IMG/VR virus record: IMGVR_UViG_3300023435_000009
DNA: 64,000 nt
Strand: one strand, 5' to 3'
Origin: a virus
Lineage: Duplodnaviria > Caudoviricetes
Positions 2,181 to 63,630 of this stretch are shown piece after piece. Both the position numbers and the translations under genes were made by a program. How positions within the stretch are numbered: the stretch's first letter is position 1; each line of letters opens with the position of its first letter. Under the pieces are notes generated by a model that saw only the letters and a program-made list of their open reading frames with translations, was not told the origin of the DNA and made no database searches.

Positions 2181-2208
2181 GAGATCATCTTCCGGCCCCT
2201 TGGAGTAG
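2181..2208 (+). promoter_or_regulatory. conserved bipartite motif (putative phage promoter)
   Basis: GAGATCATCT-N12-GAGTAG, followed by GGAGG and ATG 2229. Confidence 0.75.
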
Positions 2209-2228
2209 TTAAGGGTACGGAGGTGCTC

Positions 2229-3569
2229 ATGAAAAAGATACTTGTCGCCGGAGGTGCCCGTTCCCTCGTGTACGGTAATCTCTCCAGGAAGCTCGAAAAG
2301 AACGACCTCACGGTCGGGTGGTACATCTCGGATTTGGATGGTGACCCTTTCAGGGGAATCCCCTCGGACTGCGATGCAGTCCTGGTCATCCGAGATATCA
2401 TCAGTCACAGCCTCTACCATGAGGTCAACAAGGCTGCGAAGGAGAAGCCCGTCCCCATTGCCGTCATCCCACGGAAGTGGAGCAAAGCCGAACCCCTCCT
2501 ACGGATGCACGGGATACTACCCCCGGCCCGACAACCGTCGAAGGGGGTGCCCAAGGGGAGGGTTACGGAGACCGCCAAGGACTACGTCCACATGGAGATG
2601 CTCGGGGGCAGGGTTCCCAAAGCAGCCGAGGTCGAAGCCGCCGTGCAAACGGCCCTGGGACCGAAGGTCACCGTCTCTGCCAAATCCGTACATGGCATCA
2701 TCTCCTGGGTGCGCCAGGGGCTGCCCGTGCAACCGGAGAAGATCGCAGAGGATCTCAAGCAGGGCCTCAAGGATGCCACCGTCATGGTGGACCTTTTCGC
2801 AGAGGACAATCCCGCTGCAGCGCTGCGGGTGCCTGACCTGATGAAGGGTGCCTCTCTCCCTACCAAGGAGATGGCTGGAGACGAGATCGATCGTCTCCGT
2901 GCCCGTTGGCTCAAGGACAAGGCATGGCGACACAAATGCCAGGGGAACTGGCTGCGACGAGTCCTGATCAAGGTACAGGCCGAGGATCTCCCCTGGCCAA
3001 ACCTCAAGCAGTTGTACGCACAATCCAGGGCGCTTTTCGGGTTGATGCTACCCCATACCCTTGCCGTGGATGTTCGGGCAGACGTGTTGGGGGAATGGGC
3101 ACGACACCTGGACGCTAATAAGGCCAGTGCCTATCTGAAGCAGCACGCTCCCGAGTTGGACCTGATCACCCTCTGCAAAACGGGTCACGTCAAGCACCTT
3201 CACATTGGCACACGATACGTGACCTCGGTGATGGCCATCACCGAGTACCTGGATGAGACCAACCCTGAGCAAGTGGAGGCTCAGGGGACGGAGGAAGCTC
3301 CCACCTCTGCCCCGGCTCCCACCCCTGCCCCCAACGATGACCTGATGACCCTGGCATCCCTGGTGGAGGAGAAGCTGGCAGGGTTGATACGCCCCTTGAT
3401 CGATGAGGTGATAGCCTTGAGGCACCGGGTCGAGGAGGTTGAGTCGGTCTCTCCCGAGGCACCTGTCACTCTGCCACCCGAGTCCCCCGTTGCCGGGGTC
3501 CTGGATTTATTCAAACATATCCACGGGTTAGAAATCCGCTTCATAACGGACCCCAAAAAGGGGGGATGA
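2229..3569 (+). CDS. hypothetical protein with N-terminal DUF2325-like domain
   Basis: KILVAGG...IPSDCDAVLVIRDIISHSLYHEVNKAAKEKPVP resembles DUF2325; C-terminal coiled coil. Confidence 0.6.
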   Translation: MKKILVAGGARSLVYGNLSRKLEKNDLTVGWYISDLDGDPFRGIPSDCDAVLVIRDIISHSLYHEVNKAAKEKPVPIAVIPRKWSKAEPLLRMHGILPPARQPSKGVPKGRVTETAKDYVHMEMLGGRVPKAAEVEAAVQTALGPKVTVSAKSVHGIISWVRQGLPVQPEKIAEDLKQGLKDATVMVDLFAEDNPAAALRVPDLMKGASLPTKEMAGDEIDRLRARWLKDKAWRHKCQGNWLRRVLIKVQAEDLPWPNLKQLYAQSRALFGLMLPHTLAVDVRADVLGEWARHLDANKASAYLKQHAPELDLITLCKTGHVKHLHIGTRYVTSVMAITEYLDETNPEQVEAQGTEEAPTSAPAPTPAPNDDLMTLASLVEEKLAGLIRPLIDEVIALRHRVEEVESVSPEAPVTLPPESPVAGVLDLFKHIHGLEIRFITDPKKGG

Positions 3570-3871
3570 TACCCCGTTACGAAGACCCAGGTGGGCACGG
3601 ACATCCCGGCTGATGCCCCTTCAGATGTTTCCGGGGATGAGCGGGAGATGATTAGGATGAGAGGGGGAAGTCCCGCCTCTGCTACGAGTTTGCCCTCACC
3701 CAGCCCCAACTTGCCCACCTCAGATGAGAACCCCGGTTGAAGTTTGACCTCTGGTGACGCAGATTTCGGTTTCTCACCCTGAAACTAGACAAGGGGGCAG
3801 AAAAGTTTTGAAAAGGCCCCAACTTATCAGACACATCCGGCGACCCCTTTAACGGGGGCTTTTGGGAGGAT

Positions 3872-4573
3872 TCAGAGAGTACGACGGTGCATGTCCAGGA
3901 ACAGATCAGGTGGGGTGAGATTCTTGATCCGGGAGGCAATACTGTCAACGGCACTCGCCCTCGATTCAGGGGTTGCCCGGTCGTCCTCCCAGGGGATCTG
4001 ATACACTGTGACGCCTTGTTGTTGGAGAACACTGATCATGTGGCTGATCTCCTGATCGAGATCCCGGAGGTACTCCAGGCTGATCCCGCTTTCACAATCC
4101 CGTCCCAGCTCAGTCCTCATCCGCTTGGCTATGCGCTCTTGGGCGACCTCTGGGGACACCAGGATGTGGAGGCACACGGTCGGGAGAAGTACTGATGCTG
4201 TCATCCCGTGGTACAGGGTCTGATAGGTTTTGAACTCCCGGTCACTCATCATCCCATTCTTGAGTTGAAGCCTGGCGAAAGCTGTGTCGCCCTGGTAACT
4301 CCGATCCAGCACGGCGTGCCCGTGGCCCTGCATGGCGTGCCACTGGGCGTGAAGGTGCATCCGGTACCTCATCGCCAACAGGTGAATTTGCATCGGGAAG
4401 GCCCAAGCCTTGGGATCCGAGTAGTAGTCCGCCAGGTAAGGATTGGCGTTGTCCTTCTCATCCGGCTCGATCAGGGTGAGGGTGCCCTCGCCCAGCGCCA
4501 CACCCAGTTCTTGAGCCAGCGTGGTTTTTCCAGCGCTGATCAGTCCTTCAACTATCACGACCTTCTTTGCCAT
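3872..4573 (-). CDS. deoxynucleoside kinase family protein
   Basis: VIVEGLISAGKTT P-loop, VLDRSYQGD motif, LEYLRDL lid-region motif. Confidence 0.9.
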   Translation of the reverse strand: MAKKVVIVEGLISAGKTTLAQELGVALGEGTLTLIEPDEKDNANPYLADYYSDPKAWAFPMQIHLLAMRYRMHLHAQWHAMQGHGHAVLDRSYQGDTAFARLQLKNGMMSDREFKTYQTLYHGMTASVLLPTVCLHILVSPEVAQERIAKRMRTELGRDCESGISLEYLRDLDQEISHMISVLQQQGVTVYQIPWEDDRATPESRASAVDSIASRIKNLTPPDLFLDMHRRTL

Positions 4574-5444: not shown

Positions 5445-5470
5445 TGCGCCTCCTGGATCATCCTACCCCG

Positions 5471-6832
5471 TACAGCTTACCTTGATAAGAAGGCTTGTGT
5501 TTTTTGTTTTTCTTTAGTAAACTGCAACCATGGGATTGAGAACTTAAGGTAGCGAAATGATTCGGTCTTCTGCTCATAGCTTGCGGTTTGCAAACCCAGG
5601 TAAGGTGAGATTGGTAGGGGAACTTATCGGAGAGTATCGCCTTTTTGTCCAACGCATTCTAAACGACATATGGGAGAATGGCTTTCCAACGTGGGACTTT
5701 TTCCCAAGCTCAAACAGACTGGATTTCAAAGGCAAGAGCCTTCTACCCACAAAGTACCTCAAGCAGTTCCCAACAGAGATATCAGCAAGGCTTCAACAAG
5801 CTGCTGGTAAACAAGCCGTTATGATGCTCAAGGCAGCCACGGAGAAACGACGGAAACAACTTTTCGTGCTGGCTAACCTTCAGCGAGAAGGTAAGAAGTA
5901 CCAGTACCTCCAGTCAAGGGTTGACCGGCAACCTCTTGTGAAACCGGACGCTTCAGGAATCAATCTGGAACTAGATTCTCGTTTTGTGGGTTTCCAAGAG
6001 ACAGACATCTTTTTGTTTGTTCAACTCTCATCCCTTGGAATCCCACACATTAGAATTCCTATCAAAAAGACCCGTTGCTCTAACAAGTGGCAGACTAGGG
6101 GACTCCTGAAAGTATGTGTTAGGATCTCTGAGGACACACTACATCTAATTTACGAAGTGCCAAACAAAAGCGCCTCAGGAAGTCAGATAGTTGGTGCAGA
6201 CCAAGGTATCACAACTGCGTTGACTCTCTCAAATGGAGAAGCAACCAAACGTTGTCCTCATGGGCATACCCTCCAAACGATCCAAGCAAAACTTGCTCGT
6301 AAGCAAAAGGGGTCGAATGGTTTTCGTCGTACCCAAGAGCATCGCAAGAACTACATCCATTGGTCCTTGAATCAACTCAACTTCAAGGACGTGAAAGAAG
6401 TTCGTTTTGAGAAAATCAAGCATCTCCGCTTATCAAAGCGGAGTTCACGCTATATGTCACATTGGCGCTATACTTTGATCAAAGACAAACTTGTTCGTCT
6501 CTCTGAGGAGGAAGGTTTCCTTTTTCGGGAGGTTGCGAACGAGTTTAGGTCTCAGAGGTGTAGCGAGTGTGGCTGGGTCCGTAAGAGTAACAGGAAAGGT
6601 AAGACGTTCAAATGTGGCAAATGTGGCTTTACCATAGATGCTGATTTGAATGCGGCTTCCAACTTGAAGCTCGATCTCTTTGAGATCCAATGGTGGGTAC
6701 GGCTAAGTCAAATAAATCGTAAAGGGTTCTTTTGGACTTCTGATGGTTTGTTTGACGAAGGGCGGGAGTCTATAGTCCCCGCCACCATAAAAGACAATGA
6801 AAGTAAGAAATTGCTACAACATTGTTGACTAT
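5471..6832 (+). mobile_element. TnpB-only IS200/IS605-superfamily element, family A copy 1
   Basis: 1362-nt segment with a close second copy at 44072-45432; shared ends TAYAGCTTACC...GTTGACTAT (exact ends uncertain by 2-3 nt). Confidence 0.85.
5557..6828 (+). CDS. tnpB: RNA-guided endonuclease TnpB
   Basis: RuvC-I GADQG, RuvC-II VRFEK, Zn ribbon CSECG..CGKCG, RuvC-III DADLNAASNL. Confidence 0.92.
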   Translation: MIRSSAHSLRFANPGKVRLVGELIGEYRLFVQRILNDIWENGFPTWDFFPSSNRLDFKGKSLLPTKYLKQFPTEISARLQQAAGKQAVMMLKAATEKRRKQLFVLANLQREGKKYQYLQSRVDRQPLVKPDASGINLELDSRFVGFQETDIFLFVQLSSLGIPHIRIPIKKTRCSNKWQTRGLLKVCVRISEDTLHLIYEVPNKSASGSQIVGADQGITTALTLSNGEATKRCPHGHTLQTIQAKLARKQKGSNGFRRTQEHRKNYIHWSLNQLNFKDVKEVRFEKIKHLRLSKRSSRYMSHWRYTLIKDKLVRLSEEEGFLFREVANEFRSQRCSECGWVRKSNRKGKTFKCGKCGFTIDADLNAASNLKLDLFEIQWWVRLSQINRKGFFWTSDGLFDEGRESIVPATIKDNESKKLLQHC

Positions 6833-6860
6833 CAGAGTAGATGGTGCAAGGGAGGTGTGA

Positions 6861-7476: not shown

Positions 7477-7504
7477 GGGATCATCTCCCCGACCCGCAGA
7501 GTAG
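7477..7504 (+). promoter_or_regulatory. conserved bipartite motif (putative phage promoter)
   Basis: GGGATCATCT-N12-GAGTAG upstream of ORF 7540. Confidence 0.8.
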
Positions 7505-7539
7505 GGTAAGTGAGGAGCAAATGACCCCTGGAGGAAACA

Positions 7540-7767
7540 ATGCTCATCCGAGACGCTATCTGGGCAATCAGGGAAGACCCCACCAAGTGGGTTCGCCCCG
7601 TTGAGTGGCGGGCCAAGTTTTCAGCCATCCGGTGTATCGAGGGTGGGTTGCGACGGTACAATTCTCCCGTAGGACACGAAATCTGCGCCCTCTCCGAGGT
7701 CCGCTACATTACTGGAGAGTGGGAGATCCTCACCGAAGTTCAGGTCGCTGAGATGCTGGAGCACTGA
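7540..7767 (+). CDS. hypothetical protein
   Basis: GGAGG RBS; coupled to the next gene by a TGATG overlap. Confidence 0.6.
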   Translation: MLIRDAIWAIREDPTKWVRPVEWRAKFSAIRCIEGGLRRYNSPVGHEICALSEVRYITGEWEILTEVQVAEMLEH

Positions 7768-8678
7768 TGGATAAACCAGGACTCATGGTGGCCCTAGCTA
7801 TCGGGGATGCTTACGGTGCCGGTTTTGAATTTGCCCCACCTGAGATGGTCGCCAAGACCAACACGGTGCAGGGTTATCGCCCGCACCCCAAGGGCGGGAT
7901 CAAGCCGGGACGGTACACCGACGATACTCAGTTGAGTTGCGGGGTGGCCGAGTTCATGCTCTCGGATGATCCCTGGACGACCGTGTACCTCGCTCGTCGC
8001 CTTCTCATCGCTTTCAAGCGTGACCCCCGACCGGGATACGCTTCGGGCTTCTACAACGTCCTGCTGGAGTGTCAGAATGGCACGGAGTTGGTACAAAAAC
8101 TGACCCCTCAGAGCGACAGGTCAGGAGGTGCAATGCGGGCTGGTCCTTGTGGGCTGTACCCAACCGTGTGGGAAGCGATGAATTTGGCCGTGTGGCAGGC
8201 CAGCATAACCCATGCAACGGTAGATGGAATGAATGCAGCCGCTGCCGCTGCGGCCCTGGTGTTTGCTTGCCGTGAGGGTCATGACCAGAAAGATCTCCCC
8301 CACTACCTGAACGATGTGGTGCCGGGGTACTCCTGGGCGACACCCTGGGAGGGGCCAGTCTCCAACAGGGGAATCCCGGTGCTCCGTGCGGTGGTCACGG
8401 CGCTCGCCGGTCACAAGACGATGAAGGGGATCCTCAAGGCCAGCGTCGCCTTCACCGGGGACACCGACACGGTCGCCGCCCTGGCAATGGGCGCAGCGGC
8501 GATGCACCCGGACATCCCCTGCGATCTGCCCGACGTGTTGTGGGACAAGCTGGAGAACGGTCCCTACGGGCGGGACTACCTGCGAAAGCTGGACGCACAA
8601 CTTCTCCAGTCCTTTCATGTGGTTCCACCCGTGCCCGAGGAAGACCCACCGGATGAGGAGGGTTTGTTTTATGCCTAG
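7767..8678 (+). CDS. ADP-ribosylglycohydrolase (DraG/ARH family)
   Basis: LAIGDAYG, YTDDTQL, SGGAMRAGP, GDTDTVAALA metal-binding motifs. Confidence 0.92.
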   Translation: MDKPGLMVALAIGDAYGAGFEFAPPEMVAKTNTVQGYRPHPKGGIKPGRYTDDTQLSCGVAEFMLSDDPWTTVYLARRLLIAFKRDPRPGYASGFYNVLLECQNGTELVQKLTPQSDRSGGAMRAGPCGLYPTVWEAMNLAVWQASITHATVDGMNAAAAAAALVFACREGHDQKDLPHYLNDVVPGYSWATPWEGPVSNRGIPVLRAVVTALAGHKTMKGILKASVAFTGDTDTVAALAMGAAAMHPDIPCDLPDVLWDKLENGPYGRDYLRKLDAQLLQSFHVVPPVPEEDPPDEEGLFYA

Positions 8679-12387: not shown

Positions 12388-13889
12388 AGAAGGGGTACTT
12401 GACAGTATCCGACTTACTTGCTAGAGATTAATTATTCCTGCTTGAATCAGGAAGCAGAGGTTAGCAAATGAAGTGTCGCATCTTCCGACTTCACAAGGAT
12501 ACCAATCAGTCCAAGATCGATAAGTTGGAAGCCCTACACAAAGCATACGTCAAGTACGTCCGCATTTGCGTACAAACGATGCTTGACCAGCAGGTCTATA
12601 ATCTCCCGAAAGCCGCCAAACAAACGTTCTTCCCACGGGCCACCAACCTTACGTCCCAAATCGAAAAGATCGCACGAGACCACGCTATCCAAATTGTGAG
12701 CGCTTGGGCCAAAGCCACTTACGCCCGCAAGTTGAAACCGACTATCACCAACCTCAAGCACGAGGGTACCCTCACCGAACAGGACGCCAAAGCACTCTGT
12801 GTCATCGGATTAAAAGCCATCAGTAAGCCCTGGAAGTTTATCACCCAAGACCATCTCGACGCCTACCACACCCTGTTGGACACCTACGGAGGTAATAAGC
12901 CTATCGTAAGGGACAACCTGCCCATGCGGTTGTCGGAGATGACGGCTCGGTTGGAGGACGCATCTAAAGCCCCTCTCGGGGACTTCTGGTTGAGGGTGTC
13001 TTCGTTAGAAGCTCGTAAGTCCGTCTGGTTGCCTCTCGTTGGGAATCTTTACATTCAACAAGCTGATCAGGTCAGCAAAGGGATCTCAGCCCGCAAAACC
13101 AAGCGAGGCTTTTGGCGCTTTGAGGCGGTCAGTAAGGCTGAATGGGTTGTTCCCGAAGCACAGGAAGGTTGGCCTAAGTTGGGCGTTGACGTTGGTCTGA
13201 ACGTCCTTGCAGCTACATCAGATGGAGTGATTTACGGTGAACACGTCAAACCTAAGTTCGACAAACTCTACGCTCGTGTCAGAAATCTTCGAGCAAATCG
13301 CCAACGGCAGGATTTGAAGGATAACAGCCCAAAGTTGGATCACCTTGAGAGCAAATTGAGTGGGTTGATCAAGACAGAGACGGGTCGTGTGGTAAACACC
13401 CTTATCGTTCGTCATCCCGAGACGGTGTTCGTGGTCGAAGATCTCGATCTTCGAGGTTGTAGGGGTCAAAAAAGGTTTGCTTACAGGGCGTTACAGATCA
13501 ACTTGGAAAGGAAAGCTCCAACAAAGAAAGTGAACCCTGCTTACACGTCGCAGGAGTGTCCTTCTTGTGGTTATGTTCATCGAGGAAACCGAAGTTCAAT
13601 AAGGTTCCGTTGCCGCTCGTGCGGCAGGAAAGCTCATGCTGATTGGGTAGGAAGCGCTGGTGTGCTCAGACGTTCTGGAGACGAACACATCAAAGCTAAT
13701 GATCACCCACGAGGCGTAAAACGAGTGCTAAGAGAGCGATTCCGTATTAAGCGGACCAGTTCCTTGGGATTCGGACGGCAAGAGCAACCGTCATCCGAGC
13801 CCTTACCGTTGGGCCGGGAGCTTACTACCGAGGCACTTGGGTTACCAAGGATCGGCACAGCCTCAAACTTGATGCCTGTTACATTCTAG
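12388..13889 (+). mobile_element. TnpB-only element, family B full-length copy
   Basis: 5' region (AGAAGGGGTACTTGACAGTA...ACTTACT...TTCCTGCTTGAA.CAGGA) and tnpB 3' region are shared with the remnant at 63771-64000; ends approximate. Confidence 0.7.
12468..13889 (+). CDS. tnpB: RNA-guided endonuclease TnpB (family B)
   Basis: LGVDVGLN, VVEDL, CPSCG..CRSCG, HADWVG RuvC/Zn motifs. Confidence 0.9.
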   Translation: MKCRIFRLHKDTNQSKIDKLEALHKAYVKYVRICVQTMLDQQVYNLPKAAKQTFFPRATNLTSQIEKIARDHAIQIVSAWAKATYARKLKPTITNLKHEGTLTEQDAKALCVIGLKAISKPWKFITQDHLDAYHTLLDTYGGNKPIVRDNLPMRLSEMTARLEDASKAPLGDFWLRVSSLEARKSVWLPLVGNLYIQQADQVSKGISARKTKRGFWRFEAVSKAEWVVPEAQEGWPKLGVDVGLNVLAATSDGVIYGEHVKPKFDKLYARVRNLRANRQRQDLKDNSPKLDHLESKLSGLIKTETGRVVNTLIVRHPETVFVVEDLDLRGCRGQKRFAYRALQINLERKAPTKKVNPAYTSQECPSCGYVHRGNRSSIRFRCRSCGRKAHADWVGSAGVLRRSGDEHIKANDHPRGVKRVLRERFRIKRTSSLGFGRQEQPSSEPLPLGRELTTEALGLPRIGTASNLMPVTF

Positions 13890-17335: not shown

Positions 17336-17358
17336 GTTCGTCCTCCTTGTACTGGAGA

Positions 17359-18078: not shown

Positions 18079-18088
18079 GGACGACCTC

Positions 18089-19624: not shown

Positions 19625-19643
19625 GGACGACCTCCTACCAAGA

Positions 19644-49842: not shown

Positions 49843-50015
49843 CTAAAACCTCTCGATGAAGACGTGTGTGACGGTGATCCGCCGCACCAATCCTCTTTGA
49901 GCGTCCCTGACCTTTCCCGTTTCAGAGAAGCGTATCACCTCATCTACTCGAAGCCTGCCTTTGATGATCAAAACACGCTGCGTGGAGTGGGTTCCGACCT
50001 TGGCTATTATCCATT

Positions 50016-51929: not shown

Positions 51930-51957
51930 CTACTCAGGGGTCGGCTCAGATGATCCC
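51930..51957 (-). promoter_or_regulatory. conserved bipartite motif (putative phage promoter)
   Basis: GGGATCATCT-N12-GAGTAG; its TAG is the stop of the MTase gene. Confidence 0.8.
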
Positions 51958-53672
51958 TCATCATCACCCCACAGATCTTGGAACGTTTGTTGGTCCCAAA
52001 CCCTGTCGTTATCCTTCTTGCGTAAAATGTAAATTGGATCCGGGAGTGGAACATACTCTTCCCGAGGGCGGTAGAGGGGTAACAAAGGCTTCTTCCCCCT
52101 CTCATAGTCGTCCCAGGACAAAACCTGGATCCGGGGACACCTCGGATTAGGAGAAACCGGAAGAGCGTCGTTGGTTTCCTTCAGATACCGTGCATCTGAA
52201 TCATTCATGGGATACAGGCTGTAGGTTACGAAATAGGGTGGACGAGAACGCACACCACGGATCAAACCGTCCTCTAACTTGGCACGAGCCTTCCCAATCT
52301 TATTCTGAAGTGACCCGGTCTGTGCCGTGATGTCCACCCAGGCCAGTAAAGTCCCGTCCTCCCTGTACAACCTTCCGTCTTTACCCCCATCAGCACCAAG
52401 GGAGTCTGATCCCTCCGCCTCCAATAAAGCCACCCACACTTGTTCCAGTTTTTTATGTCCCTTCAACCCTTTGAGCACCTTGCTGTTGAAGGCTGGATTG
52501 GTGCTCAATTTATGCGCTCCGGCGTAGGTGCGAGGTGACCCGGTCAATTCGATTTTGTCTAACGCAGGTGACTCAGGAAAAGCCTTCGTCAGACGCTCCA
52601 ATGCAAACTCCGGGAAGTGGATGTTCACATCGGAGACCCAGAACCGGCGGTTTGTTCTCATCGCAGCCACCGCCGTTGTTCCTGTTCCTCCAAAGGGATC
52701 GATAACCAGATCGCCTTCTTTGGTGGTGGCTTTAATGAGGGCCTCCACCAGAGCTTCCGGTTTCTGTGTACTATTGGCCCATTTGCCTTTCACTTTTTCT
52801 TTGGGTGTGAGGAAAAGGTTATCCCAAAAATGGGATGCATTTTTAAGGATGCCCCCGTCGCCCACGTAAACCTTCTTCCAGGGACGCCGGTAGATCCCTC
52901 CGTCCTTTGCCTTACTGTCCGTGTAGTCCAACAGCCCTTGATCCTCGTACTCTTGCATCGTTTTCCGGGTGATGCCCCTGATGCATTTGTACCCCGTCCA
53001 TTCATAGGTATAGGCGGGATGTCCTCCGATCAGGTCCGAGCGTGTGTACTCTCCAATTGCGTCCGTGTAGGTTTGCCTTCGGCACTTTAGGGGGATCTGA
53101 TGGCTCTCCCAATAGGGTTTGGCTCCCCCCTTCCAGATCACTGTCAACGTGTCCACGCAACGTCCCTGCCACTGGGTGTTGGGGCGTTCCTTAGAGGTTC
53201 TTCTCCAGTAGATGGGCTCTGCTGGGGTGTTGAAAATATAACGGCAGAGGGTGTGTATGGTAGTCCCGAACTTGTCATCCGCATGGAAGATCAAAGCGTG
53301 ACCGGGTCTCAGTGCCCGGTGGGACTTCCAGATGATATAGGCCACATTGATCAGAAAGGCCCATTCTGAATTGGGCCTTAGTACCTTCTCCATCTCAAGG
53401 AAGTCCAGTAGGCCCGTACACTTTTGAAGGGCCTTTTCTGCTCTCACTGTTTCCTCCGAGGCCATTTTGGACAAGGCGCTAAAAGCCTTGTTCTGAGCTT
53501 CGTCCGCTCCCTCTAACCCATAAACAGGGTTAAGGGTGTACGGTGGATCCAGGTAGATGCACCCCGCTACATTCTCGGGCGTTAACAGAGGGGACAGAAC
53601 GTCCCCAACATGACCGAAACCGAGCCAATTGCCATCATCGTAAAGCATTTTGAGCACCTCCTTTTCAGACAC
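51930..53672 (-). CDS. N6-adenine DNA methyltransferase with C-terminal restriction-endonuclease-like region
   Basis: IYLDPPY, TQKPEAL, DPFGGTGTT; C-terminal ADGGKDG...WVDI segment. Confidence 0.85.
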   Translation of the reverse strand: MSEKEVLKMLYDDGNWLGFGHVGDVLSPLLTPENVAGCIYLDPPYTLNPVYGLEGADEAQNKAFSALSKMASEETVRAEKALQKCTGLLDFLEMEKVLRPNSEWAFLINVAYIIWKSHRALRPGHALIFHADDKFGTTIHTLCRYIFNTPAEPIYWRRTSKERPNTQWQGRCVDTLTVIWKGGAKPYWESHQIPLKCRRQTYTDAIGEYTRSDLIGGHPAYTYEWTGYKCIRGITRKTMQEYEDQGLLDYTDSKAKDGGIYRRPWKKVYVGDGGILKNASHFWDNLFLTPKEKVKGKWANSTQKPEALVEALIKATTKEGDLVIDPFGGTGTTAVAAMRTNRRFWVSDVNIHFPEFALERLTKAFPESPALDKIELTGSPRTYAGAHKLSTNPAFNSKVLKGLKGHKKLEQVWVALLEAEGSDSLGADGGKDGRLYREDGTLLAWVDITAQTGSLQNKIGKARAKLEDGLIRGVRSRPPYFVTYSLYPMNDSDARYLKETNDALPVSPNPRCPRIQVLSWDDYERGKKPLLPLYRPREEYVPLPDPIYILRKKDNDRVWDQQTFQDLWGDDEGSSEPTPE

Positions 53673-54619: not shown

Positions 54620-55807
54620 TTACGCCCCTGCCTTGAAGTTGTAGACCGGCTTCAACCGGGCCTTGATTTCGACCGTGTCCCCGATGCAGTCCTCAACGGT
54701 CTGCGAGTCCTTATATGCCATCGGAGCTTCATCCAAGGTTTTCCGGGTCACACAGGAGGTCCAAACGTCCTTCATCGTGTCCCTGAATTCCTCCAGGGAC
54801 AACTCCCGCTTGGCCCTTCCCCGAGCCATCTTCCGTCCGGCCCCGTGGGGTGCCGAGTTGTTCCAGTCCTCGTTACCTTTGCCTTCGCCCAAAATACACC
54901 CATCCCGCATATTCCAGGGTATGATGAGTTCTTCCCCTGCCTTGGCCGAGATGGCACCCTTGCGGATGATGTCGTCGTTCCCGATGAAGTTGTGTACCGA
55001 TGTGACCATTTCCAGGTCTGCCAGTTTCAACCCGAAAAAGCGTACCAGTTCTGTAGCCATCACCAAACGGTTCAGGGCTGCCAACTGTTGGGCCAGACGC
55101 ATTTCACGAAGATAGGACCGAGCGTCATCTCCAGTCAGCCAAGCGAGACCACCCCAGGAACCCAACTTGGTCTTGGCAACATTTTGATGCTTCTCAGCTA
55201 CCCGTAGACCGAAATTCCGGGAACCGGAATGGATAATCAGCCAAACATCTGCACCGTCCTTTTCCTGATCCAGTTCTAAGAAGTGGTTCCCTGACCCCAA
55301 AGAACCAAGAGAATGCCACACCTTACTCCCATCTCCTCGGGCACTCCAGTCCACATCATTCACGGTGTCCTGAAAATCAGACCAGGAAGGGCCTCTCCCC
55401 AAGTAGTGTTTGAACAAGTATGGGAGGTCTTTGGACACCTCTGTTCGGTTCCGAAACCCCGAAGGGACATGGGTTCGCAAATGCTTATCGAAAGCTTCGA
55501 AATCAGTCTGATCTTTGGTTGTGCCCGTTAACCGAACAGCGTTTACGCCGCACCCAATATCGACCCCAACAAGAGAGGGCACAACAGCCAAGTCCTCCTC
55601 ATCCAGGGGGCAGGTGAATCCGATCACACAACCAAAGCCTGCGTGATGATCGGGCATGATCCTCACTTTGGCCCCCGCAAAAGCGGGGAGATCCAAGAGT
55701 GCGTAGATCTGCTGAGCCTCCAATTGATCTGGGTAGTCCCCGTAAACAACAGCCGTTGTCCGGCCTCCCTGAATGGTGTGTCCTATACTCATTAAACCCT
55801 CCGTCAC
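54620..55807 (-). CDS. rtcB: RNA ligase RtcB
   Basis: IMPDHHAG, GVDIGCG, SLGSGNHFLE, IHSGSRNFG, HNF, PHGAGR, LDEAPMAYK. Confidence 0.95.
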   Translation of the reverse strand: MTEGLMSIGHTIQGGRTTAVVYGDYPDQLEAQQIYALLDLPAFAGAKVRIMPDHHAGFGCVIGFTCPLDEEDLAVVPSLVGVDIGCGVNAVRLTGTTKDQTDFEAFDKHLRTHVPSGFRNRTEVSKDLPYLFKHYLGRGPSWSDFQDTVNDVDWSARGDGSKVWHSLGSLGSGNHFLELDQEKDGADVWLIIHSGSRNFGLRVAEKHQNVAKTKLGSWGGLAWLTGDDARSYLREMRLAQQLAALNRLVMATELVRFFGLKLADLEMVTSVHNFIGNDDIIRKGAISAKAGEELIIPWNMRDGCILGEGKGNEDWNNSAPHGAGRKMARGRAKRELSLEEFRDTMKDVWTSCVTRKTLDEAPMAYKDSQTVEDCIGDTVEIKARLKPVYNFKAGA

Positions 55808-55813
55808 AAGGGT

Positions 55814-55841
55814 CTACTCAAGTGGGACCACGGATGATCCC
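55814..55841 (-). promoter_or_regulatory. conserved bipartite motif upstream of rtcB
   Basis: GGGATCATCC-N12-GAGTAG; its TAG is the stop of the endonuclease gene. Confidence 0.8.
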
Positions 55842-56626
55842 ACTTGGTGTTTTAAACGCCAAGCACGGGCAGTGACACTTTTTTCTGTTCTCCCAAGCCG
55901 TTGTGCCGCTACATAAGGGAGTTCGGCCCAAACAACGGCATCTTCTTCCGGGGTCCACCTTTTGTAGGGTGGCCTTTGTCGCATTTCAGGAGGTCTCTGC
56001 CAAAGTAGGACAGTGGCTGATGCCTTCTGTTTGCGCTCTAAGGCCAATGCTCCTGGATAATAAAAGGCTTGCACCAAGGACTGAGCATCCTCCTTCAAGT
56101 ACATTATATTGAACATGTTGTCTCTTTTGTTAGGCTGTAATTTTCGGGGCTTACCCGTGATGGCTTGACAAAAACTCATGAAGGCGGCAGCGATGTGGGG
56201 GCTTTTCGTGCCGAAACTGACAAAAGGAAAACCTTTTCCTGTGATGCCTACGGATCCATCTGCATCAAGCCACCCCCGAAAATAGTCAGAAGCAGAAAAG
56301 GGGGTCTCGGGGGTTTTTACAGAGGTAGACTTTTTACCCGCAGGAAGTCCTAATCTCTGCAACTCCTTTCTGAAATGCCAATTGGACACCCTGAGGCTAC
56401 AGGACTCATAACCCTGTTTGAAGTTTGTGTCCCGGCAACGTGTAGACACACTAGAGTAAAAAGGGATGAGCTTCTGAAAGGCACACAAAAGAGGCTTATC
56501 CGAAATCTGAAGTTCGATTGTTAATTTGCCCTTGTTACCTGGACCTTGCCACAGGTGGCCGTCTGCCTGTGTAAAACCGAAAAAGTAGGCCCATTGGGGA
56601 TCCCTGAGATCAATGTTGTAAGTCAT
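55814..56626 (-). CDS. double-motif LAGLIDADG homing endonuclease
   Basis: YFFGFTQADG and YFRGWLDADGS motifs. Confidence 0.9.
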   Translation of the reverse strand: MTYNIDLRDPQWAYFFGFTQADGHLWQGPGNKGKLTIELQISDKPLLCAFQKLIPFYSSVSTRCRDTNFKQGYESCSLRVSNWHFRKELQRLGLPAGKKSTSVKTPETPFSASDYFRGWLDADGSVGITGKGFPFVSFGTKSPHIAAAFMSFCQAITGKPRKLQPNKRDNMFNIMYLKEDAQSLVQAFYYPGALALERKQKASATVLLWQRPPEMRQRPPYKRWTPEEDAVVWAELPYVAAQRLGRTEKSVTARAWRLKHQVGSSVVPLE

Positions 56627-57668: not shown

Positions 57669-58333
57669 CTCTACCCCCCCCTTTGTTTTATAAATCAGCC
57701 ACAATGAGCACCACGGTGCCCCAGTGCAATCCCTCATATTCTAATGCATCCATCTTCTAGCGCTCCTTCGAACCATACGAGATCACAGTACAGGGAGGAT
57801 CCACCTTGCCATCCAGTCGTGTGAATACGTCAACAGACCAGTGGGGGAGTTTGGAGGGGACAATCAACATCTTCACCCTTCTCTTACTGTCCAGCCAGAA
57901 GTAACGGAGGTTCCAGCGTTCTTGGCCGGAAACGTCCACCCAGCGGGTAGACGGTCCAAAGGCCTTGACGTGAGGGAAATCCAGCCCTCTCTGGTAGATG
58001 ACTCGGTTCAGTACCCGACTTCCGGTGCGGAAATCGAAGTGGCCTTCGGGAGTTCTCCCCCGGTAGATGGGTCGTTCCTTCTCACAAAAGATAGGGCCAC
58101 CCTTTAACGAACGACCCCAGGCGTCCTTGTCCTGCTCCTTTGCACTCCTGGATGTCAACGTTCGGAGCACCCTGGCGTGTGGCGTGGCCAAGCATTCCTG
58201 GGCCTTCCTCCTGAAACCGTCGAGGGACACCAACGTGCCCTCCTTGTAGTCTTCTAGGAGAACCTCCCATACTCTCTTGTTCTTTTTAGCCTGTCCCATC
58301 TTGACCTCCAGGATCATTCGTCCCTTACACCTA

Positions 58334-58361
58334 CTACTCTGCGGGTCAGGGAGATGATCCC
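58334..58361 (-). promoter_or_regulatory. conserved bipartite motif (putative phage promoter)
   Basis: GGGATCATCT-N12-GAGTAG. Confidence 0.8.
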
Positions 58362-59711
58362 TCGACCTTGGGCAGGACAGGCGAATACCGGGTGTTATCC
58401 AGGCACTCACGGAGGAGGGCGTCCAGGGTGGCATCGTTATCCTCGGTGAACTCTACGGCAACAGCGTCCCGCAGGAGTCTGAGGCACTCGGTGATGTTGA
58501 CCACGTGCGGTCCTTGGCGAACCTCCTCCTTGAAGATCTTGCGGAGCATCCATCGTTGGAAACGGGTCATGTCAGCCCTCCTCGATGTCGTCGTTGCCCC
58601 GTCCGGAAAAGCGCTTGCCCTCGTGTATCACGGTCCCAGACGGATCGACATAGATGCGCCCGGTCTGACAGAGGTCCCCGTTCACGGAGATGGTCCTCGG
58701 TCCCCTGACACATACCTCGTGAGCAACCAGCCACGCCTCTATTGCCGTGGCCACCTCCTCGCCCGTAAATTCGATGTTCACACCGGGGCCGAACTCGGTT
58801 TCCCCACTCCCCAGTTGCACCTTCATTGGGACACCTTCACCTTGTGGGTGCTCATCCACCTGGGGCCGTCCTTGTGGTACCCGCCTGTCACGACCTCATA
58901 GTAGCGGTCGCCTGCCTTGATGCGCCCACCCTTATGGTCCTTCCGGGCCGTCCGCACTTTGCTCTGGCGGGAGAAGGTCTCGACCATGAAGCCGAGGTCG
59001 CACCGGCAGTTGTCTTGGGTTTCGTCACAAAAGGCACAACGTGCGCCGTCACCTTCCCCGTCGAAACAACCACACTCGGGGGCGTCGCCATCGGTGTAGT
59101 CATACCATCCGCAATGCGGGCAACGCATCCGGCGGTATCCGTGGTCGTCAGCCCATTGCTCTCTGTCGGTGTGTGTGCTCATCGTGTGTTCTCCTATGCC
59201 TCGGTCAGGATGTCTATGGTCCGATAGGACCCCTTGTTGTCCCACCCTGCGATGGTGCTGATGCTGATGTCGACGTTGCACATGTCGTTGAGGAATTCGA
59301 GAGTGCCGTGCGGACCTTCCCCGCTGTAGCCCCATCCGAATCCCGTGTAGACCATCAGGACAATCTCCTGTATGTCTGTGTCACGATACGCCGCTTCCGT
59401 GCGGTAATCCGAACCATCAGTGTGGAATACCACGGTCTCAGGTATCCCGTAACGGGCCTGCATGTAGCGAGCGTTATCCAAGGAGATGTTGGTCACACCG
59501 CACTCATCCTTGAGGGACTTGGGAACCTTGCGGTTGGCCCGTCTCCAGGAACGGGCAGCAGCCTCGGCTTTCCTTTTGGTCCTCATGGTCACAACACCGT
59601 GGGGAGAGCGGAACTTCCACTCGTGGTCCCGTTCCTTCCACACTTCATAGAGTTCCTTGGTGTGTTTCTTCACGGTGTCTCCCCTGCGGGGTCATTTGCC
59701 CCTCACCCTTA

Positions 59712-59739
59712 CTACTCTGAGGTCGGAGGAGATGATCCC
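59712..59739 (-). promoter_or_regulatory. conserved bipartite motif (putative phage promoter)
   Basis: GGGATCATCT-N12-GAGTAG. Confidence 0.8.
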
Positions 59740-60052
59740 ACTACTTTGTTTCCCAAGGTCCTCGGGGAAGTCGTTCCTTCCACGAATCCTGGACGGCCTC
59801 GCTCTCGTACTTCCGGCACCCACAAACGAATGCCTCCTCCCCGCTGGGGGAAAGCTCGGTGTGGCCGAAACTGTCCTGGAGCCACCCATGATGGATCAAG
59901 GACCGCCACGTTGCGATGTAGGTCTTTTGCTTGGCCAGGGAGGTGCTAAGGACACGCCTGAGGGCCTGGTACTGACGTTTGGTGGGTTTCAGGTTTTTGC
60001 TTGTGATCGTCATCAAGGTGCTCCTTGCAGGGATCATTTGCCCTCACAAGTA

Positions 60053-60080
60053 CTACTCTGGTCCTGACAACGATGATCCC
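60053..60080 (-). promoter_or_regulatory. conserved bipartite motif (putative phage promoter)
   Basis: GGGATCATCG-N12-GAGTAG. Confidence 0.8.
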
Positions 60081-60146
60081 ACCTTGATCCCACCTTGTGC
60101 CAGGGACACGACGGTAGAGTAGATGATATAAGGCTGGGGGGCATCT

Positions 60147-60665
60147 ATGGGAAACAAAGAGCAGGAGAAAGAGAAACGGCGTAGGAAGGCAGCACAGCGC
60201 CGTGCAACCAAGCGTAAGGAAAGGACAGCCAAGGCCAGACAAACAAAGCCCAAGGGGCTTGCCGATGTGACCCTGGAGGAGTTTCCAGATGAGCAATTGC
60301 TTTTCTGGCTGGCTCAGGGTGTCAACTATCTCGTATCCGACTACGACAATGGAGTCTGGTCCCCGTTGGTAGAGGGCATCTACGAAGGCAAGGTACCTTC
60401 AGCGGAGGAGCTTGCCCGGCTGGTGATGGCTCGGTTCGCTGACGAAAAGGAATGGCCCATAGAGGCTAAGGCTGCAGTTGCCTGGTCCGTGAGTGACCGG
60501 AACATCGTCTACATCTACTACAAGGAGGTGCTCCGCCGCCTCCGAACAACCTATCCCGATGTGGATGACATCGAGGCACTCGCACGGCAACCGCATCAAC
60601 CCCAGGTCTGGCAAGTGTTCAAATTCCTCCGTGACAAGCTGCTGAAGAAGAGTGTTGGCCGATGA
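60147..60665 (+). CDS. hypothetical protein with basic N-terminus
   Basis: first ORF of a plus-strand operon ending in thyX. Confidence 0.65.
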   Translation: MGNKEQEKEKRRRKAAQRRATKRKERTAKARQTKPKGLADVTLEEFPDEQLLFWLAQGVNYLVSDYDNGVWSPLVEGIYEGKVPSAEELARLVMARFADEKEWPIEAKAAVAWSVSDRNIVYIYYKEVLRRLRTTYPDVDDIEALARQPHQPQVWQVFKFLRDKLLKKSVGR

Positions 60666-60954
60666 GTGACGGAACAGGCTCCACCAACCGTTTGGCCCGT
60701 AAAATCCGAGCAGGAGGCTGTTGCCCTGTTGGCAGTTACGAGCATCAGGTGCCCATGGCCCTTCGGGGACGTCGGCAGGAGATTGACATCTGTATTGCTG
60801 ATATTGTAGCCGCCCTGAACGCAGCCAACATCATCACCGTGGCAAGTTGCTGTGGGCACGGCGGGGAGAGGCTCGGAGACATCCTGTTGGAGGATGGGCG
60901 TGTGCTGTCTATTCAGATGCCCGAAAGGTCTACGGACACAACGGAGATCAGGTA

Positions 60955-61548
60955 ATGAGCACAGGAATTCGATTCGTAGACGTTCTTTTGCCTAAGCTGA
61001 GAGATGACAGCAAGACCCAAACCCGTAGGGTGGTGAAACCGCAACCCGACCAAGGGGGTGTCATTCGTCAGGGGCAAAACGAAGATGATCAACCTGTGTT
61101 TGTTGTGACCGAGTCTGGTTGCGGCGGGGAGTGGCACCACAACATCCAACCCCGTTATCTTACTGGTGACAGTGTCTACCTTCAGGAGCCCTTTTGGAGT
61201 AATGTGACAGGAAGCTCTATTCGGTTCTACCAGCCAAAGGGCAATGGTTGGGTTCCTGTATCTGGAAAGGGCTTGTCGGCGGCATATGCCCGCACCTGGC
61301 TCCGCATCACCAACGTGAGTGTCGAACGGTTGCAGGACATTAGCGAGGACGACTGCATTGCGGAAGGGATCGAGATGCAGGACGTGCGCCCCGGCAAATG
61401 GTTATTTCACGCTCCGGGTGTTGACGCTGATTTCTACTCAGCCCAAACTGCCTTCGCAGCCCTTTGGGACAGCCTCGCCAAACCTGATTTCCGTTGGAAG
61501 GACAACCCCTGGGTCTGGGTCTACACCTTCAAAAGGAAGACCTCATGA
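60955..61548 (+). CDS. ASCH-like phage protein
   Basis: KTQTRRVVKPQP, LRITNVSVERLQDISEDDCIAEG, NPWVWVYTF. Confidence 0.8.
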   Translation: MSTGIRFVDVLLPKLRDDSKTQTRRVVKPQPDQGGVIRQGQNEDDQPVFVVTESGCGGEWHHNIQPRYLTGDSVYLQEPFWSNVTGSSIRFYQPKGNGWVPVSGKGLSAAYARTWLRITNVSVERLQDISEDDCIAEGIEMQDVRPGKWLFHAPGVDADFYSAQTAFAALWDSLAKPDFRWKDNPWVWVYTFKRKTS

Positions 61549-62270
61549 TCCTGTTGAAACCCAGCTTCCACATCGAAGAGGGACTGTTCGGTGATGATGC
61601 ACTGCGTCTCATCGAGCGTGCCGGGCGTATCTGCTACAAGAGCGAGCCGAGGGGCAACCCGAAGGCCTTCGTGCGGAAGCGCCTCAGGCAAGGTCACGAA
61701 TCCATCCTGGAGCACGCTGGGTTCACCGTGCGGTTCGTGGTTGATCGGGGGATCTCGCACGAGTTGGTTCGACACAGGCTTGCGTCCTTCTCCCAGGAAA
61801 GCAGCCGTTACGTGGATTACACAGGAATGAAGTCGGACGGCCACTGCCAGTTCATCATCCCATCTTGGTTCGGTTCCGAGTACGAGGGTGGCTACTGGTT
61901 ACATTGGGAACAGGACAACTACCGCCGGGTCTGGCAGACGAAGGAAGGCGAAGCTTTCTATCAGGACGTCTGGTTGATGCCCGAGGACCCTGTCAGAATG
62001 TGGCTGAACGCTATGCTCCAGGCTGAAGGTCACTACCAGGCCCTTCGGGGAGCACAGTGGACACCACAGCAGGCCCGGAGCGTTCTACCCAACTCCACCA
62101 AGACCGAGATCTTTGTCACGGCAAACATCAGGGAATGGCGTCTCATAAGGAAACAACGGACAGCCCACGCTGCCCACCCGCAGATGCGGGAGGTGACGAT
62201 CCCCCTGTTGAAGGAGCTACGAACACGGACCCCTGTCCTGTTTGAGGACATCGAAGGAGCACCTGAATGA
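61545..62270 (+). CDS. thyX: FAD-dependent thymidylate synthase
   Basis: GHESILEH, SHELVRHRLASFSQESSRY signature. Confidence 0.95.
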   Translation: MILLKPSFHIEEGLFGDDALRLIERAGRICYKSEPRGNPKAFVRKRLRQGHESILEHAGFTVRFVVDRGISHELVRHRLASFSQESSRYVDYTGMKSDGHCQFIIPSWFGSEYEGGYWLHWEQDNYRRVWQTKEGEAFYQDVWLMPEDPVRMWLNAMLQAEGHYQALRGAQWTPQQARSVLPNSTKTEIFVTANIREWRLIRKQRTAHAAHPQMREVTIPLLKELRTRTPVLFEDIEGAPE

Positions 62271-62490
62271 CACTGGATGAGGCAATAGAGCACGCTGAGG
62301 ACACAGCCCGCCAGAAGCACAAGGATGGCCCCGACTGCACCTGTGCGGTGGAGCACCAGCAATTGGCTGAGTGGCTCAAAGAACTCAAGGCCCTCCGGGA
62401 ACGGGACGCTACAAAAATCGGCTCCGAGGTGGTCACCGAGACCCCTTAAAGTAGGTCGTGTCCTTTAGAAATGGATGCGTGGATTGAAAT

Positions 62491-63066
62491 CTAGCCCAGC
62501 ATCACCTTGTCCCGCCAGTAGTAGTAGGAGGCCTTCAGAGCGGCCTCGAAAGCCTCCGGCGACATCCCCGTGGCCGAGCCACCGTCATCCCCGAAGTGGT
62601 TGGCCATCAGGGTTTGAGGGATCATCGGCTCCTCATCCTCCGCAGAACAGAACTTCCCCAGCACACAGATGACGTTCCACTCGGTCTCGACGTAGGTTTC
62701 GTCCTCGGCCAGGACATCCCGATGGTAGAGCACGACGTCCACCGACCGGGGCGTCACCTTGGCCTCCGAGATGGGCGTGGGGCACTCGTACCCAACGGAC
62801 ATGCGGGGCGTCTCGCCGTCCCTCCGGGCCTTGTAGGACCCCCGGAGCTTGTCCCCCTCCTGGAGCACACGGATCCCTGCTTTGAAACCATCGGGTGAGA
62901 CGGGCACCAAGACGACGCCGTCCCGGTAGCCAGGGCGCTGGAGGTCGAAGTTCTCCTGGACCCGTTTGAGCAGTTCCTCGTCCGTGATCTCCCAGTGGGT
63001 GAGTCCGCTGTTGGGATCCCGTTGCCGGTCCACGAAAGGGCTCATTGCGATGCTTGGTGTCTTCAT
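62491..63066 (-). CDS. DUF3228-like protein
   Basis: GYRDGVVLVPV...ARRDGETP...VDVVLYHRDVL. Confidence 0.6.
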   Translation of the reverse strand: MKTPSIAMSPFVDRQRDPNSGLTHWEITDEELLKRVQENFDLQRPGYRDGVVLVPVSPDGFKAGIRVLQEGDKLRGSYKARRDGETPRMSVGYECPTPISEAKVTPRSVDVVLYHRDVLAEDETYVETEWNVICVLGKFCSAEDEEPMIPQTLMANHFGDDGGSATGMSPEAFEAALKASYYYWRDKVMLG

Positions 63067-63124
63067 GTTTCCTCCTGCCTGACAGGACGGACGGGGCTGT
63101 CAGGTTGTGACAGTTATACTGCCG

Positions 63125-63550
63125 TCACCTGTCTTCTAGGGGGATGCACGTTGCACGGGATGCCCCCCGAAGGCGACCATCGGCACCTTTCCACAGGAGC
63201 ACCCAGGAGGAATGCTCCTTCTCAAGCCAAGGGAGACGTCCATTAACGGCCCCTCTGGTTCGCACGATGGTCGAGCTTTCGCTGTCCCCTTGTGCTACGA
63301 GACCTTCCACATCCCAGATGTAGATGTGTGTGCCTCGTGGGACTCGGAAGAAACGGGTTTCCATAAAGATGTCGAAATACCCCGCTACCACCATGTCTTT
63401 GCGAGATGGGATCTTATCCGGTTCATACCCCATGTCCTCCATGCATTCAGCCCATTCCTCGTCTGTGTAGGAAGCAGGGGCTACTGTGATTTCGTTAATG
63501 CAGCGGCCATCCACTATTTTGTTTGGGCAGCGAGCACTACAGGGTATCAT
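63125..63550 (-). CDS. hypothetical protein
   Basis: first gene downstream of the motif at 63603. Confidence 0.55.
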   Translation of the reverse strand: MIPCSARCPNKIVDGRCINEITVAPASYTDEEWAECMEDMGYEPDKIPSRKDMVVAGYFDIFMETRFFRVPRGTHIYIWDVEGLVAQGDSESSTIVRTRGAVNGRLPWLEKEHSSWVLLWKGADGRLRGASRATCIPLEDR

Positions 63551-63602
63551 TTTGTCTCCTGGCCCTTCGGGTATCCATTAGCGTCCTCATGTACACCATT
63601 AA

Positions 63603-63630
63603 CTACTCGGACGGTCCCCCAGATGATCCC
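63603..63630 (-). promoter_or_regulatory. conserved bipartite motif (putative phage promoter)
   Basis: GGGATCATCT-N12-GAGTAG. Confidence 0.8.

Follow-up and report, generated by a model that had tools for sequence, protein, structure and literature searches.

A dispersed two-box motif as a predicted promoter class of an uncultured salt-lake megaphage and its relatives

The DNA analysed here is a stretch of 64,000 nucleotides (nt) from a virus of the Caudoviricetes (IMG/VR record IMGVR_UViG_3300023435_000009), which we refer to at its full length as the window. Its genes include those for DNA methylases, an ADP-ribosylglycohydrolase (ARH), a Macro-domain protein, RtcB, a superfamily 2 (SF2) helicase and stand-alone helicase-associated (HA) repeat proteins, and between them recurs one short element, GATCATC-N13-GAGTAG (two fixed boxes around 13 free nucleotides), which we interpret as the promoter of a phage-specific transcription class. 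No paper on this motif was found in the literature.

Copies of the motif and the genes they precede

Exact GATCATC-N13-GAGTAG occurs 18 times in the window, against 0.00 copies expected from 100 dinucleotide-preserving shuffles; the density is approximately one copy per 3.5 kb, and roughly one gene in five has GGGATCAT-N14-GAGTAG just 5' of it. A preliminary description of the window had listed 17 copies, all of which we recovered (its plus-strand coordinates begin 1-2 nt early, the preceding G(G) being counted in), and had overlooked an eighteenth exact copy at 49944-49969 on the minus strand, the eighth base of which, A, lies outside the [TCG] that the description had specified. The motif is all-or-none, in that a degenerate search of the window over GGGATCATC..GAGTAG with up to two mismatches gave no extra copy. 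Neither box is enriched singly in the window: GAGTAG alone is found 37 times against 19.8 expected, with the full copies accounting for the surplus, and GGATCATC alone 21 times against 3.1 expected, 17 of the 21 being inside full or split copies. The copies, including a nineteenth that is split in two, are as follows (the downstream box is described further below).

2183-2208, plus strand: copy 1 (GAGATCATC...GAGTAG), between the N6/N4 DNA methylase gene 826-2166 and the gene 2223/2229-3569
5456-5470, plus strand: left half of the 19th copy (GATCATC and 8 spacer nt), cut off by the TnpB element 5471-6829
6830-6840, plus strand: right half of the 19th copy (5 spacer nt and GAGTAG), 20 nt ahead of a start at 6861
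7479-7504, plus strand: copy 2, heading a 75-amino-acid gene 7540-7767 and then the ARH gene 7767-8678; downstream box 7514-7528
17359-17384, minus strand: copy 3, heading the HA-domain gene 17000-17335; the TAG doubles as stop codon of gene 17359-18078
19644-19669, minus strand: copy 4, heading the HA-repeat gene 18824-19624; the TAG doubles as stop codon of gene 19644-20648
24588-24613, minus strand: copy 5, topping a minus-strand block (gene 24234-24566, then the SF2 helicase gene 22268-24247)
26096-26121, minus strand: copy 6, heading the Macro-domain gene 25482-26054; downstream box 26072-26087
28331-28356, minus strand: copy 7, heading the gene that ends at 27529 (start 28293 or 28314); downstream box 28308-28322
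29525-29550, plus strand: copy 8 (TGGATCATC), heading gene 29602/29638-30099
32944-32969, minus strand: copy 9, minus arm of a back-to-back pair, heading gene 32523-32897/32924; downstream box 32917-32932
32985-33010, plus strand: copy 10, plus arm of the same pair, heading gene 33030-33485
34607-34632, plus strand: copy 11 (AGGATCATC), heading a 290-amino-acid gene 34694-35566
49944-49969, minus strand: copy 12 (TTGATCATCA), the sole copy ahead of a minus-strand run of approximately 14 kb from 49842 to 35989 (glycosyltransferase and radical-SAM genes)
51930-51955, minus strand: copy 13, heading gene 51680-51907; the TAG doubles as stop codon of the DNA methylase gene 51930-53648
55814-55839, minus strand: copy 14, heading rtcB 54620-55792; the TAG doubles as stop codon of the LAGLIDADG-like gene 55814-56626
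58334-58359, minus strand: copy 15, heading gene 57757-58299; downstream box 58311-58325
59712-59737, minus strand: copy 16, heading gene 59194-59673; downstream box 59688-59703
60053-60078, minus strand: copy 17, topping a long minus-strand block (first gene 59741-60013); downstream box 60030-60044
63603-63628, minus strand: copy 18, heading gene 63125-63550; also present in the identical IMG/VR fragment L019

Pfam bears out the gene labels given in the preliminary description for ARH, Macro, RtcB and HA-repeat genes downstream of copies, as well as for the SF2 helicase; most other motif-headed genes have no family assignment. The further statement that the motif heads anti-defence and accessory genes holds insofar as the labelled genes do lie downstream of copies, but the motif is not limited to such genes (in relatives it precedes genes for transfer RNAs [tRNAs], and in the complete relative G008, described below, the corresponding motif stands before most of the small-gene half of the genome), and the 'anti-defence' role of the motif-headed genes is one that we infer.

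A scan of IMG/VR with the motif found three relatives: G001 (188 kb and 36% complete by CheckV, which implies a genome of approximately 0.5 Mb) with 48 copies, G002 (74 kb) with 15 and G003 (30 kb) with 8; the reversed pattern, used as a control, occurs in none of the three. Across the window and these relatives, 89 spacers have 13 nt (N13), two have 12 and one has 14. Because the seventh base is C or T in two relatives, the true core is GGGATCAT-N14-GAGTAG. An alignment of 89 copies (from the window and G001-G003) gives a consensus in which GG occupies -2/-1, position 8 is T, the spacer is rich in C with a C at position 19, and GAGTAG is directly followed by A or T. Past this base, G and T recur at +6 and +7 after GAGTAG (62/89 and 61/89) and are followed by a purine-rich GGG, giving a conserved G-T-purine at +6 to +8. 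The flanks 5' of the motif are unconserved in the 89 copies, the spacers of the window copies are mutually unrelated, the two boxes lack mutual complementarity, and an Rfam scan of the window gave no family match.

Beyond the conserved GT(R) the copies take one of two forms, with either a Shine-Dalgarno sequence directly (start 17-25 nt after GAGTAG) or a further box and then the Shine-Dalgarno sequence (start 33-42 nt), and the start distances cluster at these two intervals. This downstream box, GGGGCAAATGACCCC, is present in about 40% of copies; in the window, (A/G)GGGGCAAATGACCC(C) lies 8-12 nt past GAGTAG in 7 of the 18 copies. In the window and G001 it is almost confined to the 3' side of promoter copies; G002 and G003 lack it, and an analogous box in a more distant relative (L060, introduced below) displays stem covariation with the loop C-R-R-A-Y-G-A kept. 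Two ideas about the box were dropped. A stable stem-loop is not favoured, as the GC stems of 3-4 base pairs (bp) fold no better than shuffles (z -1.9 to +1.2); and the ATG of the box, although in frame as a start codon in four of six window copies, is out of frame or stopped in examples from G001 and was abandoned as a general rule.

Several other features of the window lie at or near copies. The 19th copy carries a TnpB element of 1.36 kb (5471-6829) inside its spacer, with a TnpB-type protein encoded at 5557-6828 (Cas12f1-like_TNB domain); excision of 5471-6829 would restore an exact GATCATC-N13-GAGTAG (8 + 5 = 13 spacer nt). A second TnpB gene at 12468-13889 has no nucleotide similarity to the first, and its protein is 92% identical to one in G001. 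On the minus strand at 17000-24247, stand-alone HA-repeat genes come in succession after the SF2 helicase gene; each of two among them has a separate motif copy, which overlaps the stop codon of the preceding gene. At three divergent unit heads without a full motif (24630-24635, 28401-28406 and 60117-60122, all plus strand), GAGTAG or CAGTAG stands alone, 21-51 nt ahead of the start codon; at 24610 the upstream box is GATCCC, the GATC of which is common to the opposite promoter. GAGTAG alone also lies 19-20 nt before starts at 36821-36826 and 47513-47518 on the minus strand, and such GAGTAG/CAGTAG-only sites may form a weak subclass that is independent of the upstream box.

Position, orientation and counterparts in relatives

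The relation of the copies to gene starts carries the interpretation as a promoter. As had been claimed, every copy in the window points at a ribosome-binding site and start codon downstream, with the start 12-101 nt after GAGTAG in a Shine-Dalgarno-anchored scan and 19-101 nt by gene calls. Over the window and G001-G003 together, 87 of 106 copies lie no more than 120 nt upstream of a start on the same strand, compared with 15 when the strand is flipped and with 9.7% of random sites, so that orientation relative to genes is far from random; 78 of the 106 lie entirely outside called genes. Five window copies head strand blocks (24588, 28331, 32944, 32985 and 60053), and in four others (17359, 19644, 51930 and 55814) the TAG of GAGTAG serves as the stop codon of the upstream gene. 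In G001 and G002, genes for tRNA-Lys, tRNA-Arg and tRNA-Asp have copies 16, 21 and 67 nt upstream.

The divergent pair that had been reported in the window is real (32944, minus strand, and 32985, plus strand), and back-to-back copies in divergent gaps recur in G001 (13483/13524 and 69346/69406) and in G003. In such gaps no upstream transcript can exist, and together with the tRNA heads they therefore argue for a signal of transcription start rather than of translation or processing. Promoters of the sigma-70 type are at chance level in the 17-36 kb region (four found versus 5.0 expected), and the interval between GAGTAG and the ribosome-binding site leaves no room for another promoter. The motif is very probably a promoter.

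Its geometry is of the sigma type, being GGGATC-N16-GAGTAG or, equivalently, GATCAT-N14-GAGTAG, with a fixed separation of approximately 16-17 bp. The base signatures of two familiar classes are absent: there is no TAnnnT and position 29 is unconserved, unlike the housekeeping sigma-70 signature (TTGACA-N17-TATAAT, with A at -11 and T at -7), and the window class (GGGATCAT and GAGTAG) lacks the AAC in the upstream box and the CGT in the downstream box that mark promoters for extracytoplasmic function (ECF) sigma factors.

The window DNA was found in salt-lake metagenome DNA runs (at least 24 listed), with no RNA run among the listed runs that contain it; a nucleotide search with 7.9 kb of the window against 50,697 phage records and a search for an exact window 40-mer in metagenome contigs gave no match. 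The window and G001 have only four proteins in common, which made a comparison of orthologous promoters between them impossible. Because the relatives share so few genes with the window, the motif belongs to a regulatory system and not to particular genes.

More distant relatives carry motifs of the same construction with other letters. L060, part of a 418-kb freshwater phage contig, has nine copies of GGCTTAC-N14-GCGTAGAT in 20.7 kb (zero expected), and L057 has six copies of CTGCTTAG-N14-[GC]AGTAG (GCTTAG-N14-[GC]AGTAG) in 20.6 kb (zero expected); in both, all copies are co-oriented with genes. Across IMG/VR, CTGCTTAG-N14-GAGTAG gave single hits and no multi-copy contig. In G008, a complete IMG/VR genome of 536 kb (CheckV 100%), the window's motif does not occur, but GCTTAC-N14-GCGTAG, the class of L060, is present 40 times. 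Of these 40 copies, 37 lie no more than 150 nt upstream of a start on the same strand (seven when flipped), and 38 fall at 214-524 kb, the small-gene part of the genome, leaving two for the first 200 kb or so, which holds very large co-oriented genes.

G008 also allows unit heads to be compared, for 22 window proteins have homologues (29-57% identity) in its motif-rich part. In the gap between the methylase gene and the next gene, where the window has GATCATC...GAGTAG at 2183, G008 has the sister motif in its place at 523982; the Macro gene is headed by the motif at 26096 in the window and by the sister motif at 261779 in G008; and in both, the respective motif also heads the ARH and RtcB units, from a position one or two small genes upstream. 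The window motif and the sister motifs would thus appear to be functional equivalents, with the whole promoter set differing coordinately from lineage to lineage, and because it differs in concert, a lineage-specific, phage-encoded reader is favoured. Across classes G-N-GTAG is kept, while the upstream box is lineage-specific.

The same comparison gives no support to one earlier proposal, namely that methylation of the GATC in the upstream box by Dam or a phage methyltransferase could gate the whole regulon. Promoters gated through Dam and GATC are known (the pap and IS10 type), and GATC is invariant in the window's upstream box, but the sister motifs at orthologous sites have no GATC, and window-wide the tetranucleotide is neither avoided nor enriched (386 occurrences versus 420 expected from trinucleotide context).

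Candidate readers and competing explanations

The search for sigma-factor genes had a divided outcome, with none in the window and very divergent ECF-like sigma genes in relatives. G001 encodes a 216-amino-acid protein with weak sigma-4 matches, and an exhaustive HMMER search from it delimits a small family, A1 (P0001-P0007). Against PDB, the A1 profile matches sigma-H over both domains (E 0.0025), SigR (E 0.0038) and also SigE. For an AlphaFold2 model (predicted local distance difference test 71.7), the top 50 Foldseek matches are almost all sigma chains (SigH, RpoE, SigE, CnrH, SigL and SigW; probability up to 0.99, E from 6e-3), and VIA returned Z values of 8.9-8.3, all for sigma chains and mostly for group-1. 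The region-2 signature residues ED..Q and AR are conserved. On the strength of the model, we assign A1 the two-domain sigma fold with moderate confidence. A homologous-protein search with the sigma candidate returned only itself, and a metagenome scan gave identical copies only.

Homologues of A1 lie on huge-phage contigs that also carry a split mini-release-factor gene of the kind found in the window; in L055 (46% GC) an exact GATCATC-N13-GAGTAG precedes the start of the A1 homologue by 24 nt, and in G001, L057 and L060 the A1 gene lies within operons headed by the local motif. Mean identity within the family is higher in the sigma-2-like part (34.5%) than in the sigma-4-like part (21.6%), a difference mirrored in the motifs, where G-N-GTAG is conserved and the upstream box lineage-specific. 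The A1-type region of G008 (194654-195172, plus strand; L322) forms the C-terminal end of a 408-amino-acid open frame. This frame lies where the motif-poor part of the genome meets the motif-rich part, in a stretch whose other genes are all on the minus strand.

G008 encodes other proteins of the kind. A second ECF-like protein of 330 amino acids has an orthologue of 40% identity in G001 and a fairly conserved sigma-4 helix. A 209-amino-acid protein (161903-162292, minus strand; L323:1189-1815:-) has two helix-turn-helix units of the sigma-region-4 type and no region 2 (Sigma70_r4, 46 bits), and it is possible that this tandem sigma-4-only protein is an activator or appropriator. There is also a further weak region-2 hit.

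The reading of the motif given in the preliminary description, a promoter class served by a phage-encoded or ECF-like sigma factor, is the best supported, through co-orientation, tRNA heads, divergent pairs, conservation in the clade, sister motifs and the ECF-like genes of relatives. On this reading, an uncultured megaphage of approximately 0.3-0.5 Mb from salt-lake metagenomes would have a phage-specific transcription class, with the motif as its promoter. Host core RNA polymerase would carry a phage-encoded, highly divergent ECF-like factor of the sigma-70 family, the sigma-4 domain of which would bind the upstream box GG-GATCAT(C) as a -35 element (GGGATC-N16-GAGTAG having ECF-type geometry) and the sigma-2 domain GAGTAG as a -10 element. 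RNA would begin at the conserved GT(R), and leaders would be very short, approximately 11-35 nt. The class would drive the accessory small-gene part and the tRNA operons and not the large-gene (structural) part; related lineages would have kept the architecture and swapped the box sequences in all copies at once, reader and promoters co-evolving within each lineage. That the reader is a phage sigma-family protein seems to us reasonably probable, and we place about the same moderate trust in the combined claim of a promoter read through such a protein. The A1 family specifically is a tentative candidate, plausible without being favoured.

A number of observations weigh against this reading or parts of it. 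The window itself has no sigma-like gene by tblastn or by a maximum-sensitivity hidden Markov model search with A1, which hit only the helix-turn-helix repeats of a LAGLIDADG protein. A1 scores 19.3 bits for Pfam Sigma70_r4_2, below the cut-off of 25.7, and has no region-2 hit; the Z values of its fold matches lie in a range that helical proteins can reach non-specifically; and in G008, unlike in other relatives, the A1 gene has no motif upstream. G008 has several sigma-related proteins, and the assignment of A1 therefore rests on weak covariation, few lineages and general divergence rates. The boxes differ from the usual ECF signatures (AAC in the -35, CGT in the -10), and it is unusual for sigma promoters to be fully invariant at 13-14 positions.

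This invariance of both boxes is more reminiscent of promoters for phage polymerases, and most proteins of these phages have no family assignment, so an unrecognised phage RNA polymerase (single-subunit or very divergent multisubunit) might read the motif instead of a sigma factor with host core. We consider this improbable. No match to an RNA polymerase beta subunit was found in five fragments (G001-3 and G006-7) or in the complete 536-kb G008; a search with PF00940 (T7-type RNA polymerase) had no hit, although its control also matched nowhere, leaving it uninformative. Known promoters for phage single-subunit polymerases are contiguous, while two boxes around a free 14-nt spacer are typical of sigma recognition, and sigma-like genes are present in relatives. 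Similarly improbable, in our estimate, is a form of sigma appropriation comparable to that of T4 MotA/AsiA, in which a phage activator would occupy the upstream box and the primary or remodelled sigma of the host would use GAGTAG as an unusual -10. The tandem sigma-4-only protein of G008, with its 46-bit match, would suit such a role, the upstream box varies between lineages while G-N-GTAG stays, and the MotA box of T4 (TGCTTtA) looks like the cTGCTTAG of a sister class. Against this stand the absence of TAnnnT, a would-be -7 position that is unconserved, and the fact that the downstream box also differs by lineage (GAGTAG versus GCGTAG), which is unexpected for a conserved host sigma; no MotA or AsiA homologue turned up, although none was searched for.

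The ECF-like two-box geometry would equally fit an alternative (ECF) sigma of the host that the phage exploits, with differences between lineages reflecting different hosts. This seems unlikelier still: among the matches listed for 185,579 bacterial and archaeal species genomes there were only single hits per contig and no clustered regulon, and L055, at 46% GC, shares the exact motif with the 56%-GC window and with relatives of 56-60% GC from other samples while carrying a phage-borne A1 homologue. Reliance on an inducible host factor for approximately one promoter per 3.5 kb would also be risky for a phage. Least probable, and only a slight prospect, is that the motif acts other than at initiation, as a repressor operator, an RNA processing site, an antitermination or pause site for a phage NusG paralogue, or a recombination site for cassette shuffling. 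Its location between cistrons, sometimes overlapping an upstream stop, suits processing or cassette borders; a TnpB element is inserted into one copy; and GAGTAG-N4-GGTG bears a loose resemblance to the ops element of RfaH, GGCGGTAGnnTG. Copies nevertheless stand in divergent gaps and at strand-block heads, where there is no upstream transcript to act upon and no alternative promoter, the boxes neither pair with each other nor match Rfam, and the spacers are unrelated, hence the copies did not arise by recent duplication of a mobile unit.

An extension of the sigma-family reading is that these phages possess a self-contained orthogonal layer of control, in which fast-evolving minimal sigma-like factors and their promoters are switched concertedly over approximately 40-150 promoters per genome (GATCAT/GAGTAG, GCTTAG/[GC]AGTAG, GCTTAC/GCGTAG), and in which a second phage factor, such as a NusG paralogue or an RNA-binding regulator, acts through the conserved transcript-proximal box (GGGGCAAATGACCCC or GGGCA-CGGACGA-TGCCC). 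We regard this as conceivable but rather unlikely; if true, it would provide natural sets of mutually orthogonal sigma/promoter pairs and a case of a whole regulon re-coding its promoters.

Known systems and further features of the genomes

Phage sigma cascades are known from Bacillus phage SPO1 (gp28 and gp33/34) and from phiEco32 (gp36), and the SPO1 middle promoters read AGGAGA-N17-TTTNTTT. The present class resembles these in having a phage-specific consensus unlike that of the host, two boxes at fixed spacing and a class-specific distribution in the genome, and in the small divergent phage protein of the sigma-70 family that would act with the host core enzyme (here proposed, with candidates only). 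It differs in its new box sequences, in far more uniform copies (none with one or two mismatches in 64 kb), in candidate sigmas that fall below Pfam thresholds, and in a genome that is uncultured and of approximately 0.3-0.5 Mb.

Promoters for bacterial ECF (group 4) factors, for example GGAACTT-N16-TCAAA for sigmaE and TGAAAC-N16-CGTA for sigmaW, share with the motif its GGGATC-N16-GAGTAG geometry, a strict spacing and a marked reliance on both boxes, and CGTA is found within the box of the sister class GCGTAG. The best structural matches of A1, by model and by profile, are ECF sigmas, and the sigma-like gene of L055 lies behind its own promoter type, as in ECF autoregulation. Unlike ECF systems, the upstream box here has no AAC, the downstream box of the window has no CGT and no anti-sigma partner was identified; moreover, tens of targets per genome would indicate a general transcription class and not a stress regulon. 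The middle promoters of T4 (a MotA box at -30 with a sigma-70 -10) likewise have a phage-specific upstream box in place of the -35 at a fixed distance, whereas the downstream box here has no TAnnnT and is variable between lineages. T7-group promoters are similar in that near-identical copies stand genome-wide directly before gene starts, but they consist of one contiguous block of approximately 20 bp read by a single-subunit polymerase, in contrast to two short boxes with a free spacer. Most likely, then, the box sequences are new but the kind of control is known, with no new mechanism involved; as a mechanism it would be expected biology for large phages.

The motif should be of practical value as a map of transcription units for a large part of an uncultured phage of approximately 0.3-0.5 Mb and of its relatives, whose genes are mostly of unknown function, since it would mark genes that are switched on together (tRNA operons, ADP-ribose-processing enzymes, RtcB, methylases and helicase-associated genes). 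Orthologous heads whose motifs differ in sequence but not in build would be a clear natural example of promoters and reader changing specificity jointly, and the sister classes offer candidate orthogonal promoter/sigma pairs.

Some further features of these genomes were recorded. A 6.5-kb IMG/VR fragment is identical to window positions 60513-64000. There are 36 tRNA genes in G001 (L039-L041) and 41 in G002 (L049-L051), several of them headed directly by the motif, and each of the two has one gene for a transfer-messenger RNA, with the tag peptides ANTPVAMAA and ANSNEAPMAMAA. At 38211 in G001 and 38815 in G002, both on the minus strand, a similar non-coding stretch follows a motif copy (GGGGGAGC..GCATTTGC/GTTTTGC..GCTCTCGAA), with no start codon nearby, and may be a small RNA. 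The window also carries a split gene for a small release-factor-like protein at 14521-15205 on the minus strand, consisting of pieces of 37 and 189 amino acids. The same two-piece arrangement is found in L060/L061 (PCRF/RF-1 hits) and in G008 (48-59% identity), and because the split is kept in distant relatives it is a clade-wide feature and not an assembly error.

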